This document shows positions 3,045 to 64,000 of a DNA stretch of 64,000 bases, in pieces. A program made the position numbers and the translations under genes. Position 1 is the stretch's first letter. The number at the start of each line of letters is the position of its first letter. This DNA is from Armatimonadota bacterium (GTDB lineage Bacteria > Armatimonadota > SYMT01): assembly GCA_046292385.1 (NCBI GenBank), contig JBKBRF010000031.1, positions 1-64,000 on the forward strand, read 5' to 3'. The notes below the pieces were generated by a model. That model was not told where the DNA came from. It saw only the letters and a program-made list of their open reading frames with translations, and ran no database searches.

Positions 3045-5149
3045 TGGTGTTCCTTCCCTACTGCGTTCCGGTCCGCGCCCGCGGGCGCGCAATCTGGTCC
3101 CGGTACACTCGCCGCCGCCCTGTCGCGCCCCGCCTCTCCCGGCGGAGCTCCACCGCCGGCCTGAGGGCGCGCCAGCTCGATCGAGTAGACCGGCATCGGC
3201 TCTTTCCGGCCCCGGACCACCGCCGTCCCCCGGGAGACGGTCGGCGCCAGGTCTCCAGCCGCTTGCTTCGTTGCCTCACTAATAAGGATCGTTGTACCGA
3301 ACTCCTTGTTCATTCCTTCCAGCCGAGAAGCGACGTTCACCACGTCGCCGATCACGGTGAACTCGGCGCGCTCGCCCTGGCCGATCTCGCCAACCGTGGC
3401 TGGCCCGCTGTGGATGCCGATGCGCGTCTTGAGCGGCGGCTTGCCCCGCATTTCCGGTGTGCGCTGCCAGGCGTTGAGCACCTCTTCCATTTCGATGGCG
3501 CAGCGAACGGCCCGCGCGGCGTGATCCGGCTGCCGGTCTGGGAAGCCGAAGTAGGCCATCATGCCGTCTCCCATCAGCTTGTCCATCGTCCCGCCGTGCT
3601 TGAACAGGATCGGGAACATCACGGCGAAGTAGCGGTTGAGCAGCTCGCAGATCTCCTGACTCGACATCGTCTCCGAGAGGGTGGTGAAGCCCTGGAGGTC
3701 GGAGAAGAGCATGGTGATCTCGCGGGTTTCGCCACCGAGCTCCGGCCACTCGCTCAGCTTGTCCGCCACGCCGGGGCCCACGTGCCGGCTCAGCACCCGC
3801 CGCACCCGGAGCTGTTCCTTGCGCTCGCCGAAGTACATCACCACCGACTGCGCGGGTACGACGATCAGGACCCCGACCGTGGCGGTCACCGGCTCCAGCC
3901 AGACGCCGAAGTCCGCCAGCAGACGCGGCGTGCCCCACCAGAGCAGCCCGATGGCGCCCGCGCCGGCAGCCACCAGCGGCACGGGACTCAGGGCTCGGCC
4001 GACCAGCGCGAGCAGCAGGCAGACGCCGGCGAGCAGCAGCACCCGCAGCCACTCCGGGGCGTTGGACGGTGGAAGGCCCTGCAGCGCCGTCTGCGTGATG
4101 TGCGCCTGCAGCTCTACGCCCGGCATCTGGAAGCCGTCCTCTTCCGAAGAGCGGACCGGCACCCGGTGGAAGTCCTGCTTCACCTTGGTCGCGTCGCCGA
4201 TCAACACGATCCGGTCCTTCAGCCGCTCCGCCAGGATCTCCCGCTCCGCCGCGCGCTCCGGCTCGAACGCCAGGTAGACGTCTTCGTAGCCGATCACCGT
4301 CCCCGGCCCCGCGGGCGCTCCCCTGGGGCCGTAGAACCAGATGTAGCTGGCGTCGCGCCGCGCGTCCCACGGCTGCTTCGCCGGTCGCCGGCCGAGGAAC
4401 GTCCCGGTCTTTGCGAGCTCCTCCGTCATCACCGTCTTGGGGTTCGCGCCGGAATAGGCGGCGGCCGCGGCAACGCCGAGCGTCGGGATCAGCGTGTCCT
4501 CCCCGGTGTCGTAGTCGATCCCGGGAAACGCCCACCAGAAGCTCCGGACCGTCTTGTCCGAGTCGAGCGGCACGTTGACGACTCCGATCCCGGCTGACGC
4601 CTCATAGAGTGAAAACTCGGGGTAGCTGATGTCGATCGTGCTCTGCGCCAGGTCCTTCTTGTTGCCGCGGTCCTCCACTACCGCCAGGATCACCCGCCCG
4701 TGGCGCCGGATCGCCTCGGCGAGCCGGGGGTCCGCCTCGGCGTCCTCGTCCGCGAAGAGGAGGTCGAACACGATCACCTTCGCACCGAGACGGCGAAGGT
4801 TGTCGAGCACGCGCGCGTGGAAGGCGCGCGGGTGGTCGGTCCACGAGAGGCCGCCGGGCGGGGTCTCCACCCGGGAGAGCTGCTCGAAGGTGTCTTCGGA
4901 GATCTGCACGACCGTGACCGGCCCGGGCCGGACCGACCCGCCCCCCGCGTTCTGCGCCCGCGCGGTCATGCCGAGGTCGAACGCGGTCCCCTCCACCTTC
5001 AGCAGCAGCGGGTTGCCGCCGCGGTGGAGCTGCGCCTGCAGCGTGTACGCCGCCACCACGGCGACCAGGGCCACGGCGAGCGTGGCGACCCGCAGCCAGC
5101 CGGCGCGGCTGAGCGCGCGGCCCAGATTGCTTCCAGGGGCGGACACCAA
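3041..5149 (-). CDS. CHASE2-domain class III adenylate cyclase
   Basis: CHASE2 motifs (VIVFDLLF, RIVLIG, MPGVELQA), 3 TM helices, cyclase motifs MLFSDLQGFT, DKLMGDGMMA, FTVIGDVVNVASRLE. Confidence 0.92.
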   Translation of the reverse strand: MVSAPGSNLGRALSRAGWLRVATLAVALVAVVAAYTLQAQLHRGGNPLLLKVEGTAFDLGMTARAQNAGGGSVRPGPVTVVQISEDTFEQLSRVETPPGGLSWTDHPRAFHARVLDNLRRLGAKVIVFDLLFADEDAEADPRLAEAIRRHGRVILAVVEDRGNKKDLAQSTIDISYPEFSLYEASAGIGVVNVPLDSDKTVRSFWWAFPGIDYDTGEDTLIPTLGVAAAAAYSGANPKTVMTEELAKTGTFLGRRPAKQPWDARRDASYIWFYGPRGAPAGPGTVIGYEDVYLAFEPERAAEREILAERLKDRIVLIGDATKVKQDFHRVPVRSSEEDGFQMPGVELQAHITQTALQGLPPSNAPEWLRVLLLAGVCLLLALVGRALSPVPLVAAGAGAIGLLWWGTPRLLADFGVWLEPVTATVGVLIVVPAQSVVMYFGERKEQLRVRRVLSRHVGPGVADKLSEWPELGGETREITMLFSDLQGFTTLSETMSSQEICELLNRYFAVMFPILFKHGGTMDKLMGDGMMAYFGFPDRQPDHAARAVRCAIEMEEVLNAWQRTPEMRGKPPLKTRIGIHSGPATVGEIGQGERAEFTVIGDVVNVASRLEGMNKEFGTTILISEATKQAAGDLAPTVSRGTAVVRGRKEPMPVYSIELARPQAGGGAPPGEAGRDRAAASVPGPDCAPAGADRNAVGKEHQ

Positions 5150-60789: not shown

Positions 60790-61656
60790 TTAGACCTCCT
60801 TGCGGTCGAACACGTGGATTCCCACCAGCAGCCACAGCGCGCCGTAGAGCATGCCGTAGACGCTGACCTGAGCGGCATAGACCCAGTGGTTCACCGCGAT
60901 CGGCACTTCCGGATGGACGATGCTGCCCATGATGTTGAAGTCGTGGAAGTGCGGCAGCGCGTAGTAGATCCCCTTCGAGAGGAGGGAGGTGACCACCATC
61001 GACTGCTCGTTGCGGTTCGCGAGGGCGGAAACGAGCCACTGCAGCGAGCCGACGATCCAGATGAAGGCGGTGATGGAGAAGTTCACCGTCGGCGTCAGGA
61101 AGAGCGAGAGCGTGGTCGCGATGGCGGTGACGATCACGAGCTGGAAGTAGATCACGATCGTGGCGCGCGCCACCAGGATCATCTCTCCGAAGCCGCGCAG
61201 CATCCACTCTTTGACGTTCACCCCCTGGGACGCCTGGGTGAGCATCTGCTCCGCGGAGCCCTGCGGGGGGCGTGCCGCCAGCACGAAGAGGACGATCATC
61301 AGCACGATGCTCATGAGGCCGACCATGAAGCCGACCGTGAGCGCGCCGCCCAGGAACTTGCCGAAGAAGAACTCCCAGCGCTGGATCGGTTTGGCTAAGA
61401 CCGAATAGATCGTGCGCCGCTCGATCTCGTTCGGGATCAGGAAGACGGAGGTGGTGATGGAGATGAGCGCCCCGAAGATGAGGATGATCACCAACTGCGT
61501 GGACTTGAACACGGTCGCCTGCTCGCGCGCCGTGAAGTAGTTCAGCATCAGCGCGAGGACCAGGCTGACGAACGCCAGCAGCAGGAAGATGAGCAGGACC
61601 CGCTTGCGGAGCGCATCTCCGAAGGTGTTGCGGGCGATTACCCAGACGTTGTTCAT
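60790..61656 (-). CDS. ABC-2 type permease
   Basis: IARNTF, EIERRTIYSVLAKPI.RW...GKF, F..KEV end; 6 TM. Confidence 0.9.
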   Translation of the reverse strand: MNNVWVIARNTFGDALRKRVLLIFLLLAFVSLVLALMLNYFTAREQATVFKSTQLVIILIFGALISITTSVFLIPNEIERRTIYSVLAKPIQRWEFFFGKFLGGALTVGFMVGLMSIVLMIVLFVLAARPPQGSAEQMLTQASQGVNVKEWMLRGFGEMILVARATIVIYFQLVIVTAIATTLSLFLTPTVNFSITAFIWIVGSLQWLVSALANRNEQSMVVTSLLSKGIYYALPHFHDFNIMGSIVHPEVPIAVNHWVYAAQVSVYGMLYGALWLLVGIHVFDRKEV

Positions 61657-61658
61657 GA

Positions 61659-62621
61659 CTACTTGCCCTTGGTCAACTGGTTCATCGTGCCGATGCGCCG
61701 GCCGGGCTGGTCCGCCAGGCCAACCGTCTCCACGAAGATCTCTTCGAGCGTGCGCTTCAACGGCATCACGGAGATCAGGTGTCCCTTGTTGTTCCGGATC
61801 AGGTCCACCACGTCGTTCACGAGCGTCTCGTCCGCGCAGGTAACCCGCACGTGGCCGTTGTCGCTGTGGACCGCTCCGGTCAGCGCTTCCAGCTTGCCCT
61901 TTACTTCCGCGCTCACGTCCCGCGCCAGCACCTCGGTCCGGCCTTCCGCGATCAGGTCGTCCACCCGGCCGGCCTTCACGAGCTTGCCGTAGTTGAGGAT
62001 GCAGATGCGGTCGCAGACCAGCTCCACGTCGGAGAGCTGGTGGCTGGAGAGGAAGATCGTCTTCCCCTGGTCCCGCAGCGACTCGATCAGGTTGCGGATC
62101 TCGATGTGCGCCACCGGGTCGAGGCCGGAGGTCGGCTCGTCGAAGATCAGCAGCTCCGGATCGTTGATCAGCGCCTGCGCGATGCCGATGCGCTGCATCA
62201 TGCCCTTGGAGTACTGCTTGAGCTGCTTCGCCTTGTCGTTGCGCAGCCCCACCAGGTCCATCAGGGAATCGACCCGCTTGGCCCGGGCATCCTTCGGCAG
62301 CTTGAACAGGCGCCCGTAGAAGTCGAGCAGCTCGCCGCCGGTCAGGTGATCGTAGAAGTAGGGGTTCTCCGGGAGGTAGCTCACCTTCTCGCGCATCGCG
62401 ATGGCGCCGGCCGGATGGCCCAGCACCTCGGCGGTGCCTTCATCCGCGTAGATCAGCCCCAGGAGCATCTTGATCGTGGTGGTCTTACCGGCACCATTGG
62501 GCCCGAGGAAGCCGAAGATTTCACCCCTCGACACTTCCAGGTCCAGGTGGTCCACGGCCACCACTTCACCCCGCTGGAAGAACCGCTTGGTAAGTCCTTC
62601 CGCGCGAATAGCCAGGTCCAT
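61659..62621 (-). CDS. ABC transporter ATP-binding protein
   Basis: GPNGAGKTT, YSKGM, DEPTSGLDP, SSH. Confidence 0.95.
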   Translation of the reverse strand: MDLAIRAEGLTKRFFQRGEVVAVDHLDLEVSRGEIFGFLGPNGAGKTTTIKMLLGLIYADEGTAEVLGHPAGAIAMREKVSYLPENPYFYDHLTGGELLDFYGRLFKLPKDARAKRVDSLMDLVGLRNDKAKQLKQYSKGMMQRIGIAQALINDPELLIFDEPTSGLDPVAHIEIRNLIESLRDQGKTIFLSSHQLSDVELVCDRICILNYGKLVKAGRVDDLIAEGRTEVLARDVSAEVKGKLEALTGAVHSDNGHVRVTCADETLVNDVVDLIRNNKGHLISVMPLKRTLEEIFVETVGLADQPGRRIGTMNQLTKGK

Positions 62622-62981
62622 CTGGGAGGATCCTCCGTTGCTCTAGGGTAGAGCCATGGTCGAGCTCTTGCGGTGGCCGGTCGAGCTCTGCGTAGAGACA
62701 ATGAAACGGTGTAGCTGGGCGCCGAGCGGTGCGAAGCCGGGGAGAGATCCGGCCGGGTTGACCGCTGCACCCGGAAACCGGGGCGCCCGGTCAGAGCGGA
62801 GCCTTCCGCCCGTGACCCCTTGCACACCTTCTCATACGCCTTGGTTTTTCGTGGCAGTTCCGCCTGCGGACACGAAAAAACCGGCCGCCAAGCGCCCGGG
62901 TGATTGGTGGATCGGAAAAATTTTTCAGATCAGCACACTTTAGGGGTTGTGCCGCTGATGTCCGTGTGCTATGATCCGGCT

Positions 62982-63050
62982 GCGTGAAACCTCATTTTCA
63001 CCTCCTTTCGTAGCGTGCCCGCCGGATCCAATCCGGCGGGCCATTTTTTT
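62982..63050 (+). ncRNA. candidate ~70-nt sRNA with anti-Shine-Dalgarno sequence
   Basis: TTGTGC-17bp-(TGc)TATGAT promoter; TCACCTCCTTTC at 62998-63009; 11-bp hairpin plus T7 terminator. Confidence 0.6.
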
Positions 63051-63162
63051 GCGCCTGGCAGCCTGTGTAAGAAGGGGGATGTGGAGATAGGGGGAGGAGG
63101 GGGATGAGCCGGCCTTCTTCGCCTAGCGAATCCCGGGGCGGACGCATCGCCGACGGGGGCCG

Positions 63163-63412
63163 CGAGGAATTGAAATACCTCGCTCGTCGGCCTGCGGCCA
63201 CGCGTCCTCCGGACGCCTCAAACCGGGCCCTTCTCAGTCCCCGAAGGGGGACCTCGTGCCGTGATTGCCGCGGTTTCAACCACCCTGCATCGCGCTAACG
63301 AAGCCGCGCCGGAGATTCGAAGGTCGCCAGCGAGCAGGAGCAAGAGCAAGAGCAGGAGCAGGACCTCCCGTGCGCGGAGGGTTCCACTTTAGCCTTCTGC
63401 CTTTAGCCTTTA
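63163..63412. repeat. adjacent copies of repeat families C (63163-63285) and B (63322-63412)
   Basis: Similarity to 26950-27090 and to 35499-35590/9728-9818. Confidence 0.75.
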
Positions 63413-63416
63413 GAAG

Positions 63417-64000
63417 CTACGCTGCCCGGCGGCCGGCGCTCTCCAGGGGCGGCGTGAGCCGGGACCAGCCCAGCATCTCCCGGACGGCCGCGGCGGGATC
63501 GCCGGTGTTCCGGCGCAGCAGGTCGAGCTGGCGGTCGGCGCCGCCGGGCTCCCGGATCGAATCGACCAGGCCCTGAAGGTACTCCACGCAGCCGAGGCGG
63601 CGGGCGATGGGGGCCAGCCGCGCTCCCAGGTCGGCCACGTGGTCCGGCACGCTCCGCGTGACCAGCGTGCGCGGGTCGACGAGCTCGGCGTCGCGCCCGA
63701 AGCGGCAGGCGCGCCACTTGTTCTGGCGCACCATCATCGGGTGGTGCTCCCGCTGGTACGTGCCCTCGTCGATCTCCTCGGAGAGCGCCTGCACCAGGCA
63801 CTGGACCAGCGCCACCAGCCCCAGCGTCTCGTCCAGGCTGGGCGGCATGTCGCAGATCCGCACCTCTACCGTGCCGAAGTTGTGGTGCGGGCGCACGTCC
63901 CACCAGATCTCCCGGATGGTGTGGATGAACCCGGTCTCGATCAGGTGGTTCACCAGCCAGGTGTACTCGCTCCAATTCCGCATCGGCTCCGGGAGGCCGG
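63417..64000 (-). CDS. second YbdK/GCS2 carboxylate-amine ligase (3' part; continues beyond window)
   Basis: IWWDVRPH..FGTVEVRICD, NKWRACRFG. Confidence 0.85.
   Translation of the reverse strand, partial: GLPEPMRNWSEYTWLVNHLIETGFIHTIREIWWDVRPHHNFGTVEVRICDMPPSLDETLGLVALVQCLVQALSEEIDEGTYQREHHPMMVRQNKWRACRFGRDAELVDPRTLVTRSVPDHVADLGARLAPIARRLGCVEYLQGLVDSIREPGGADRQLDLLRRNTGDPAAAVREMLGWSRLTPPLESAGRRAA

Follow-up and report, generated by a model that had tools for sequence, protein, structure and literature searches.

The question raised by this locus is whether a short segment that spells the anti-Shine-Dalgarno (anti-SD) tail of 16S rRNA is a gene in its own right and, if so, on what its product would act. 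The segment lies in contig JBKBRF010000031.1 of an Armatimonadota bacterium (assembly GCA_046292385.1), of which positions 1 to 64,000 were analysed; this whole stretch of 64,000 nucleotides (nt) is called the window here and all positions are counted in it unless another contig or locus is named. The first-pass annotation had proposed that the forward (+) strand encodes a self-contained small RNA (sRNA) which can occlude ribosome-binding sites in trans, or alternatively a cis-antisense RNA. In our study, the unit is regarded as very probably a real, conserved, stand-alone non-coding RNA gene on the + strand. A trans-acting sRNA displaying the anti-SD sequence is the most likely nature of its product, a reading that is favoured with moderate assurance.

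The elements of the unit were found where they had been placed by that annotation (Table 1). The two promoter elements are held apart by a 17-nt spacer (62953-62969), GTGAAAcctcaTTTTCACCTCCTTTCG is present from 62984, and a single terminator-like site was detected on the + strand, whose 11 pairs (9 of them G-C, 63017-63041) enclose a 3-nt loop and are followed by CA and a run of seven T (63044-63050). The claim that this strand carries no open reading frame (ORF) was essentially right, as the lone listed ORF across the unit (62971-63090, 39 amino acids) begins inside the -10 box and upstream of the likely transcript start. No ORF of at least 20 amino acids starts within the RNA, as is expected of a non-coding transcript; only a GTG-led frame of nine codons without a Shine-Dalgarno (SD) sequence is found there, and this frame is lost in the divergent homologues described below. 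We infer transcription and the exact ends of the RNA from the sequence: an RNA of about 69 nt would be made from a promoter of the housekeeping type, in which the -35 is weak and the -10 extended, and would end at the intrinsic terminator. A/T-rich tracts precede the -35 element in other copies of the unit too, in G+C-rich surroundings (the genome has 69% G+C), and the tract of the window lies about 8-10 nt further upstream than in most copies.

Table 1. Positions of the predicted sRNA gene, its parts and the neighbouring minus-strand features in the window.
Feature	Position	Strand	Remark
A/T tract AAAAATTTTT	62916..62925	+	upstream of the -35; possible resemblance to an UP element
-35 hexamer TTGTGC	62947..62952	+	TTG kept 17 nt from the -10 in 13/13 copies
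Extended -10 TGcTATGAT	62967..62975	+	TAnnnT kept in 13/13 copies
Predicted sRNA, ~69 nt	62982..63050	+	5' end placed by promoter geometry and onset of conservation; 3' end in the T run
Invariant core of 34 nt, GCGTGAAACCTCATTTTCACCTCCTTTCGTAGCG (= GCGUGAAACCUCAUUUUCACCUCCUUUCGUAGCG)	62982..63015	+	identical in genomes G000 (the own genome), G004 and G005
5' hairpin P1, GUGAAA/UUUCAC	62984..63001	+	loop CCUCAU at 62990-62995; in minimum free energy and centroid structures
TCACCTCCTTTC	62998..63009	+	the same 12 nt stand at the 3' end of 16S rRNA in phylum relatives
Stretch predicted single-stranded, CUCCUUUCGUAGCG	63002-63015	+	14 nt, between hairpin and terminator
Intrinsic terminator	63017..63050	+	11-bp stem, 3-nt loop, then CA and T7
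Mini-ORF MRFHAAGS*	62969..62995	-	preceded by the anti-SD complement AAGGAGGTGAAAATG; judged not functional
Promoter motif GGAACT-N17-CGTAT, like those of extracytoplasmic function (ECF) sigma factors	62834..62861	-	belongs to the ABC operon; read by eye, spacing of 16-17 nt, 8/8 loci
ABC transporter ATPase	61659..62621	-	PF00005, 1.9e-29; first gene of the divergent operon
ABC-2 permease	60790-61656	-	matches PF12679; in the ABC operon

The predicted fold of 62982-63050 consists of a 6-bp hairpin at the 5' end, an open stretch and the terminator, with a minimum free energy of -27.8 kcal/mol and a z score of -5.03, none of 200 shuffled sequences being as stable. In this fold CUCCUUUCG is unpaired on the 3' side of the P1 hairpin, whose loop shows CCUCAU, and the 3' arm of the hairpin together with the open CUCCUUUCGUAGCG spells the 16S anti-SD tail UCACCUCCUUUC. 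The earlier statement that the motif matches the conserved 3' end of 16S rRNA holds for the phylum, and the own genome is without an assembled 16S gene. The comparison drew on four other Armatimonadota genomes, three of which end in GGATCACCTCCTTTCT and one in CACCTCCTTAAGG, whereas G000 and its four closest relatives (G004, G005, G001 and G006) have no assembled small-subunit (SSU) rRNA gene. Thus UCACCUCCUUUC of the RNA is identical to the 16S 3' end in three of the four genomes, and the 12-nt identity holds for the phylum at the level of these sequences. The likeness goes no further than this tail: the unit lies outside any rRNA gene, has its own promoter and terminator, gives no match to an SSU rRNA model, and its flanks show no resemblance to 16S helix 45.

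Taken singly, the elements of the window are weak evidence. There is a single TCACCTCCTTTC in the window. When one mismatch is allowed, chance would give 0.22 matches, and 20 of 100 shuffles had at least one, so that this 12-nt motif by itself is not beyond chance. The sRNA promoter went unreported in a simple consensus scan, because its -35 holds only three of the six consensus bases. Likewise, one terminator-like site per kilobase was found against 1.1 expected from shuffles. The unit stands above chance because it is conserved in 13 loci, namely in its own genome, in two other genera of its Armatimonadota family (genomes G004 and G005) and on 10 metagenome contigs.

A BLAST query of 161 nt, with no motif imposed, found the copies in G004 and G005 among 61 genomes of the phylum, and a fourth match (G028) covered the terminator only; the order contains eight genomes, three of which have the unit. 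When 185,579 genomes, one per species, were scanned for an exact 19-mer, six loci were obtained, with G004 and G005 as the only true matches (88.6 and 87.7 bits); those in two Saccharibacteria, one Patescibacteria and one Nocardia genome scored at most 17.4 bits and were treated as chance. From metagenome contigs a gapped-pattern scan returned 44 loci, ten of which scored 52.6-76.6 bits with the covariance model, and the remaining 34 (at most 25.9 bits or no score) were set aside as chance matches in low-G+C DNA. With the same kind of model the window copy (R1) scored 97 bits and the other 12 copies 52.6-91.9 bits. The search for paralogues that had been suggested at the outset revealed no second copy in the 7.04-Mb genome, the 14 other BLAST matches (E<=10) being terminator-like or 14-16 nt long. 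Two exact-word matches in viral contigs also failed, one with 21.5 bits, 33% G+C and no terminator and the other with no model match, and therefore the unit is considered not to be phage-borne.

The conservation is arranged as expected for a stand-alone sRNA gene, with the promoter elements in register in all 13 copies. The extended TG is found in nine copies, which are those adjoining an ABC transporter operon; the other four have cGT before TATACT or TAAACT, and with these better -10 hexamers they also have a better -35 (three TTGATT, one TTGTCG). The spacer and the 6-7 nt after the -10 element vary freely, after which conservation sets in abruptly and 34 nt are kept. These are identical at 34 of 34 positions among G000, G004 and G005. 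Over all copies two substitutions were seen in the core (T14G in the loop of L043 and T30C in L060), both in metagenome copies, in which 20 of the 34 positions had been fixed by the search pattern so that their invariance stems partly from discovery; 14 positions were free in those copies, and all 34 in the three genomes found by BLAST. The linker between core and terminator is variable (1-6 nt). In the terminator, 8 of the 11 pairs are changed on both sides among the 12 complete aligned copies, with a covariation score of 0.254 against 0.094 for shuffled alignments and none of 500 shuffles reaching the observed value. Moreover, 88.5% of the terminator cells pair, against 38-53% after sliding the partners by 1-3 columns, and the T run is on the + strand side of the stem in all complete copies.

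The adjoining ABC ATPase gene serves as a measure of divergence, since at five loci it has 76-79% DNA identity and 56-67% identity at third positions of identical amino acids. An unchanged core beside so divergent a gene points to very strong purifying selection on the core nucleotides. All six pairs of the P1 hairpin are invariant within the core family, and therefore covariation speaks neither for nor against this hairpin there. Hence, the self-contained gene proposed in the first-pass annotation is upheld by the promoter in register, by the conservation from the predicted start onwards and by the covarying terminator; its second part, the occlusion of ribosome-binding sites in trans, is retained as a proposal for which no conserved target was found.

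A wider view is given by a second model built from 12 copies, which on 151 Armatimonadota genomes found three strong matches (87-92 bits) and then a weaker tail. In this tail, G035 (38.4 bits) and G060 (37.0 bits) have GCGUGAAG, a loop of 15-19 nt with CCUC motifs, UUUCACCUCCUUUCCUUU and a terminator, and G028 (27.3 bits) has GUGUGA...UCACACCUCCUUUCGCAGUG and a terminator behind its own promoter TTGCGT-17-TGgTATACT. In the predicted fold of all three, a 5'-terminal hairpin is followed at once by an unpaired CUCCUUUC, the loops being of different size. On this likeness of sequence and fold they are credible divergent homologues in other families, and the retention of the hairpin and of CCUC indicates that the frozen 34-mer arose later than the architecture and the CCUC motifs. 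Weaker matches to the sRNA model at E<=0.1 also occur in the genus with the large-loop homologue, in G035 (8) and G060 (5), for example G035:C16:95667-95747, C15:733-786 and C11:12968-13024; these may be paralogous copies, and the best one per genome was inspected. Another kind of unit was noticed in G026, with three in tandem (L072 1501-1568, 1697-1766 and 1830-1897), and in G051 with one (L082 1501-1580). Each consists of a textbook sigma-54 promoter TTGGCACGaatcTTGCA, a 5' hairpin, an CUCCUUCC stretch and a terminator without any Rfam match. These units appear to form a family of their own, of anti-SD-like Armatimonadota sRNAs driven by sigma-54.

For the function of the RNA, the mechanism that we favour is that the CCUCAU loop and the open CUCCUUUCGUAGCG would pair in trans with GGAG-type SD regions of a set of mRNAs. 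The pairing would block binding of the 30S subunit, so that translation is repressed and the mRNA probably destabilised, and Hfq possibly assists. This proposal fits because the CCUC and CUCCUUUCG motifs are exposed in the predicted fold and because hfq is present in the own genome (C78:5776-5964, 90 bits); the U-rich 3' end left by the T7 tail of the terminator, together with this gene, suggests the assistance of Hfq. The organism itself uses SD-led initiation, as 5-9 nt upstream of candidate starts GGAGG reaches a peak of 100-125 occurrences per position, with about 25-60 in the background. The candidate starts used for this count were those close to an upstream stop, as a plain GGAGG plus ATG/GTG proxy showed a 3-nt periodicity from coding sites. 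We infer the pairing mechanism, the role of Hfq and any targets, like the transcript, from such features.

Possible targets were sought in several ways. The own genome has 49 copies of the 9-mer CGAAAGGAG, to which the seed is complementary, and 17 of them stand directly before a start codon and ORF; the seed-complement candidates of this genome are (C)GAAAGGAGG-type sites. Ranking of 65,590 GGAG-type sites by RNAduplex was uninformative, with 41,516 sites at or below -20 kcal/mol, as G-U pairing allows G-rich DNA to match the U/C-rich RNA. A seed-restricted ranking of 15,866 candidate starts placed a BNR-like gene at the top (-28.4 kcal/mol). A wobble-tolerant 15-mer search gave 11 sites at no mismatch and 278 at up to one mismatch, 59 of the latter before an ORF. 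Several of the best wobble-tolerant seed matches (CGCTGCGAAAGGAAG and similar) were observed to precede ORFs with signal-peptide-like or twin-arginine-like N-termini, as at C3 (-) 225693, C2 (-) 274821, C17 (+) 84897, C57 (+) 16360 and C9 (+) 20202 of the own genome, and may hint at a regulon of exported proteins.

Besides the part that the search pattern had in the invariance of the metagenome copies, several results weigh against a trans-acting sRNA gene. No catalogued RNA sequencing run was found for 62940-63060, where one run of unknown kind had fewer than 5 sampled words. No extended complementary site was found elsewhere in the genome, the best ungapped ones reaching 14/16, 19/26 and 24/34. 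Among the genes preceded by CGAAAGGAG, 18 in the own genome and 30 in G005, none are orthologous (blastp E<=1e-5), a comparison made with exact 9-mers only and with G005 ORFs cut at 150 amino acids; and in G005 this 9-mer occurs 86 times and its reversed control 100 times, so that it is not enriched there. The pairing of the BNR-like gene falls to -17.3 kcal/mol in G004, is -12.4 and -15.3 in genomes that lack the sRNA, and in G005 its start could not be located with the pattern used. The pairing of a YajQ-like candidate (-23.5 kcal/mol), the other of the two top-scoring ribosome-binding regions that were compared, is likewise not conserved in G004, G005 and G006. Finally, 34 invariant positions exceed what a short seed needs, and the 5' hairpin is without covariation in the core family, and therefore a protein or the ribosome could be the true partner.

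This last consideration underlies two further readings of the same RNA. It may mimic the 3' end of 16S rRNA, with a hairpin and the UCACCUCCUUUC tail, and so titrate a protein or ribosomal component or bind ribosomes and not particular mRNAs. We hold this to be improbable, even if the 12 nt are identical to the 16S tail of phylum relatives, the invariance of all 34 nt, both hairpin arms included, would be expected sooner in an RNA bound by a protein or the ribosome than in a seed-type sRNA, and no conserved mRNA target was found in the comparisons of the own genome, G004 and G005. Outside these 12 nt nothing resembles helix 45, and an sRNA selected for strong SD binding would converge on the 12 nt as well; the divergent homologues keep the CCUC motifs and not the remaining sequence; and no candidate partner protein is encoded adjoining the sRNA gene. 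Still more specific, and quite improbable in our estimate, is that the RNA is no ordinary seed-type regulator and acts as a decoy of the mRNA-docking surface of the 30S subunit, in which the anti-SD tail UCACCUCCUUUC stands beside a hairpin with CUCAU in its loop. The letters CUCAU are those of the initiator tRNA anticodon loop, and by the spacing of tail and loop an ideal SD-N5-AUG initiation region is obtained when the RNA is read as its complement. Such a decoy could act globally by clamping strong initiation regions at their SD and start codon or, alternatively, titrate a factor that recognises the free 16S tail, which would amount to a ribosome-independent brake on translation initiation; it would explain both the 34 frozen nt and the lack of a conserved gene-specific target. 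A sponge for CsrA was also considered and rejected, as GGA motifs are absent from the RNA and csrA was not found in the 98% complete genome.

The remaining alternatives place the function of the unit in cis. On the minus strand the core reads GAAAGGAGGTGAAAATGAGG, an ideal initiation region, and the SD AAGGAGGU with an ATG 5 nt later might drive a leader peptide MRFHA... that regulates the ABC exporter operon through ribosome-mediated attenuation. This operon lies downstream on this strand in 9 of the 13 loci, and the C-terminus of its ATPase gives a weak DrrA-type match that stays below threshold (21.9 bits, cut-off 27.4). The mini-ORF is, however, not conserved: in 12 copies it has 8, 8, 48, 8, 19, 12, 33, 50, 12, 12, 12 and 20 codons and in L043 it has no ATG. 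Only the five residues MRFHA, which the invariant core encodes, are common to the copies. Its variable part overlaps exactly with the + strand promoter, and the pattern of conservation is that of a promoter and not of a peptide. Further, GGAACT-N16/17-CGTAT stands between the mini-ORF and the ABC gene in all eight loci examined, which would give the operon a start of its own; four of the 13 loci have no ABC operon nearby; and the T run of the hairpin is on the + strand only. The minus-strand SD reading, named by the first-pass annotation as the observation that would overturn the sRNA, is therefore rejected as largely refuted and hardly credible. Its cis-antisense alternative is not supported either, the non-conserved mini-ORF being the only minus-strand feature opposite the RNA and the promoter-like motif of the ABC operon lying farther off. 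On the + strand, the unit may instead be a cis-acting 5' leader or transcription attenuator of same-strand Peptidase_C26/SAF-dehydratase-like genes, the short RNA being its terminated product. A Peptidase_C26 gene (E 2e-43 to 8e-42) begins about 2-60 nt past the terminator on the same strand in L019, L053 and L023, and the orthologue of the own genome is found on the same strand 3 kb downstream (C31:66038-66787). The retention of C26 nearby shows that this neighbourhood is old, and in some genomes transcription may read through into C26. We nevertheless consider such a leader unlikely. The next gene is a convergent GCS2 ligase in the window, L047 and L035 (followed in the own genome by a convergent M20-type gene) and a convergent DUF1559 gene in L020, and the core is invariant regardless. 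There is no sign of an alternative antiterminator pairing, and the sequence of the terminator is free to vary. Nor do the C26 genes have, in their ribosome-binding regions, a complementarity to the core that all of them share; a 9-nt match of the sRNA to the C26 gene start (GAGGUGAAA) is present in L019 and absent in L053, L023 and the own genome.

The genes around the unit were also characterised. The ABC ATPase/ABC-2 permease/TPR operon sits 260-360 nt upstream of the sRNA in 9 of the 13 loci. The motif GGAACT-N16/17-CGTAT before it is also found in L019, L020, L045, L047, L035, L059 and L062, which together with the window are the eight loci with a placeable ABC start, and is presumably an ECF-sigma promoter pattern. 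If this motif is indeed an ECF promoter, some 150 nt separate the start of the ABC mRNA from the sRNA, which leaves the two without overlap, and the arrangement suggests an envelope-stress-controlled exporter. The ribosome-binding region of the ABC ATPase offers the sRNA a 5-nt GGAGG core only, with no extended complementarity in eight loci. In this genome only, the SD of the ABC ATPase lies within a perfect 12-nt palindrome GGAGGATCCTCC (62625-62636), and the ABC mRNA could thus mask its own SD by the adjacent CCUCC.

On the other side of the unit, comparison with L019 (G005) shows a two-gene minus-strand cassette inserted in the own genome between the sRNA and the Peptidase_C26/SAF-dehydratase-like genes (C31 ~63417-66787, L191). 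The cassette encodes a GCS2 carboxylate-amine ligase and an M20-type amidohydrolase, and all of these genes, including the C26/SAF-dehydratase-like ones, are for gamma-glutamyl or amide-bond enzymes. Right after the terminator a G/A-rich tract AAGAAGGGGGATGTGGAGATAGGGGGAGGAGGGGGATG was noticed at 63069-63107 (+), in L047 (~3080-3140) and in L035 (~2255-2320); it is semi-conserved in these three loci with a convergent GCS2 gene and holds no conserved ORF. A tract of this kind is what the C/U-rich sRNA would pair with, and it could therefore tie up the seed where transcription reads through, or serve as a G-rich sponge.

Armatimonadota are barely cultivated, and the parts of the literature covered by our searches describe no small-RNA biology for this phylum. 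The RNA would be a well-defined first sRNA candidate for Armatimonadota, with clear boundaries, a frozen 34-nt core and relatives across several families, and it would add to the evidence for independent origins, in many phyla, of sRNAs displaying the anti-SD of the ribosome. If the invariance of the 34 nt reflects a protein or ribosomal partner, a different kind of translation-initiation control would be at hand. What makes the locus worth an experiment is its frozen core with sharp boundaries, together with the failure to find conserved targets.

Comparison with known RNA families was made with Rfam 15 (4227 models), as had been advised at the outset, and no family reached its gathering threshold on the window unit or on the 10 homologue loci, where the only match at these thresholds was a tRNA in L070. 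The best overlaps on 62600-63450 (E up to 10) were VrrA with 21.4 bits (threshold 50) and suhB/mmgR with 13.4 bits (threshold 41). The RsaE model was absent among the matches at E<=10 on the window, and the RNA is not assigned to RoxS/RsaE. Further, the portions of the literature retrieved for small RNAs or SD sequences of Armatimonadetes, and for anti-SD sRNA mimics of 16S rRNA, contain no description of this RNA.

The systems that come nearest are of two kinds. RoxS/RsaE, FsrA and CsfG are described as Firmicutes sRNAs with C-rich regions that pair with G-rich ribosome-binding regions of many mRNAs (PMC8216469, PMC6158497). They are alike in that each is a small RNA transcribed as a separate unit, from a promoter of its own to a terminator, and in showing several short C-rich motifs in loops or single strands. 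In the Armatimonadota RNA, CCUC occurs twice, in the loop and in the tail. It matches the Firmicutes group neither in sequence nor in structure by the Rfam comparison, and it differs in having the full anti-SD CACCUCCUUUC where the RoxS/RsaE group has C runs (CCCC) and in the phylum concerned, Armatimonadota and not Firmicutes, and hfq is present here. The resemblance to this group would thus be one of mechanism only. In the cuckoo family of Alphaproteobacteria (RSs0680/CcsR, C14, alpha-r14), a loop motif CCUCCUCCC has been described as anti-SD-like, conservation is limited to this motif with compensatory exchanges in the stems, and occlusion of the ribosome-binding site has been proposed (PMC4615179). 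The motif CCUCCUCCC is absent from the present RNA, which is predicted to fold with one 6-bp hairpin, the loop CCUCAU and an open CUCCUUUC and is not assigned to cuckoo/alpha-r14. Cuckoo RNAs have 2-4 adjacent hairpins with the motif in each loop, whereas here one small hairpin is followed by a single strand that carries the main motif; and the motif alone is conserved there, whereas the whole 34-nt body is invariant here. The RNA of this locus hence is a previously uncatalogued family, and the kind of mechanism proposed for it is one already known from these two groups.

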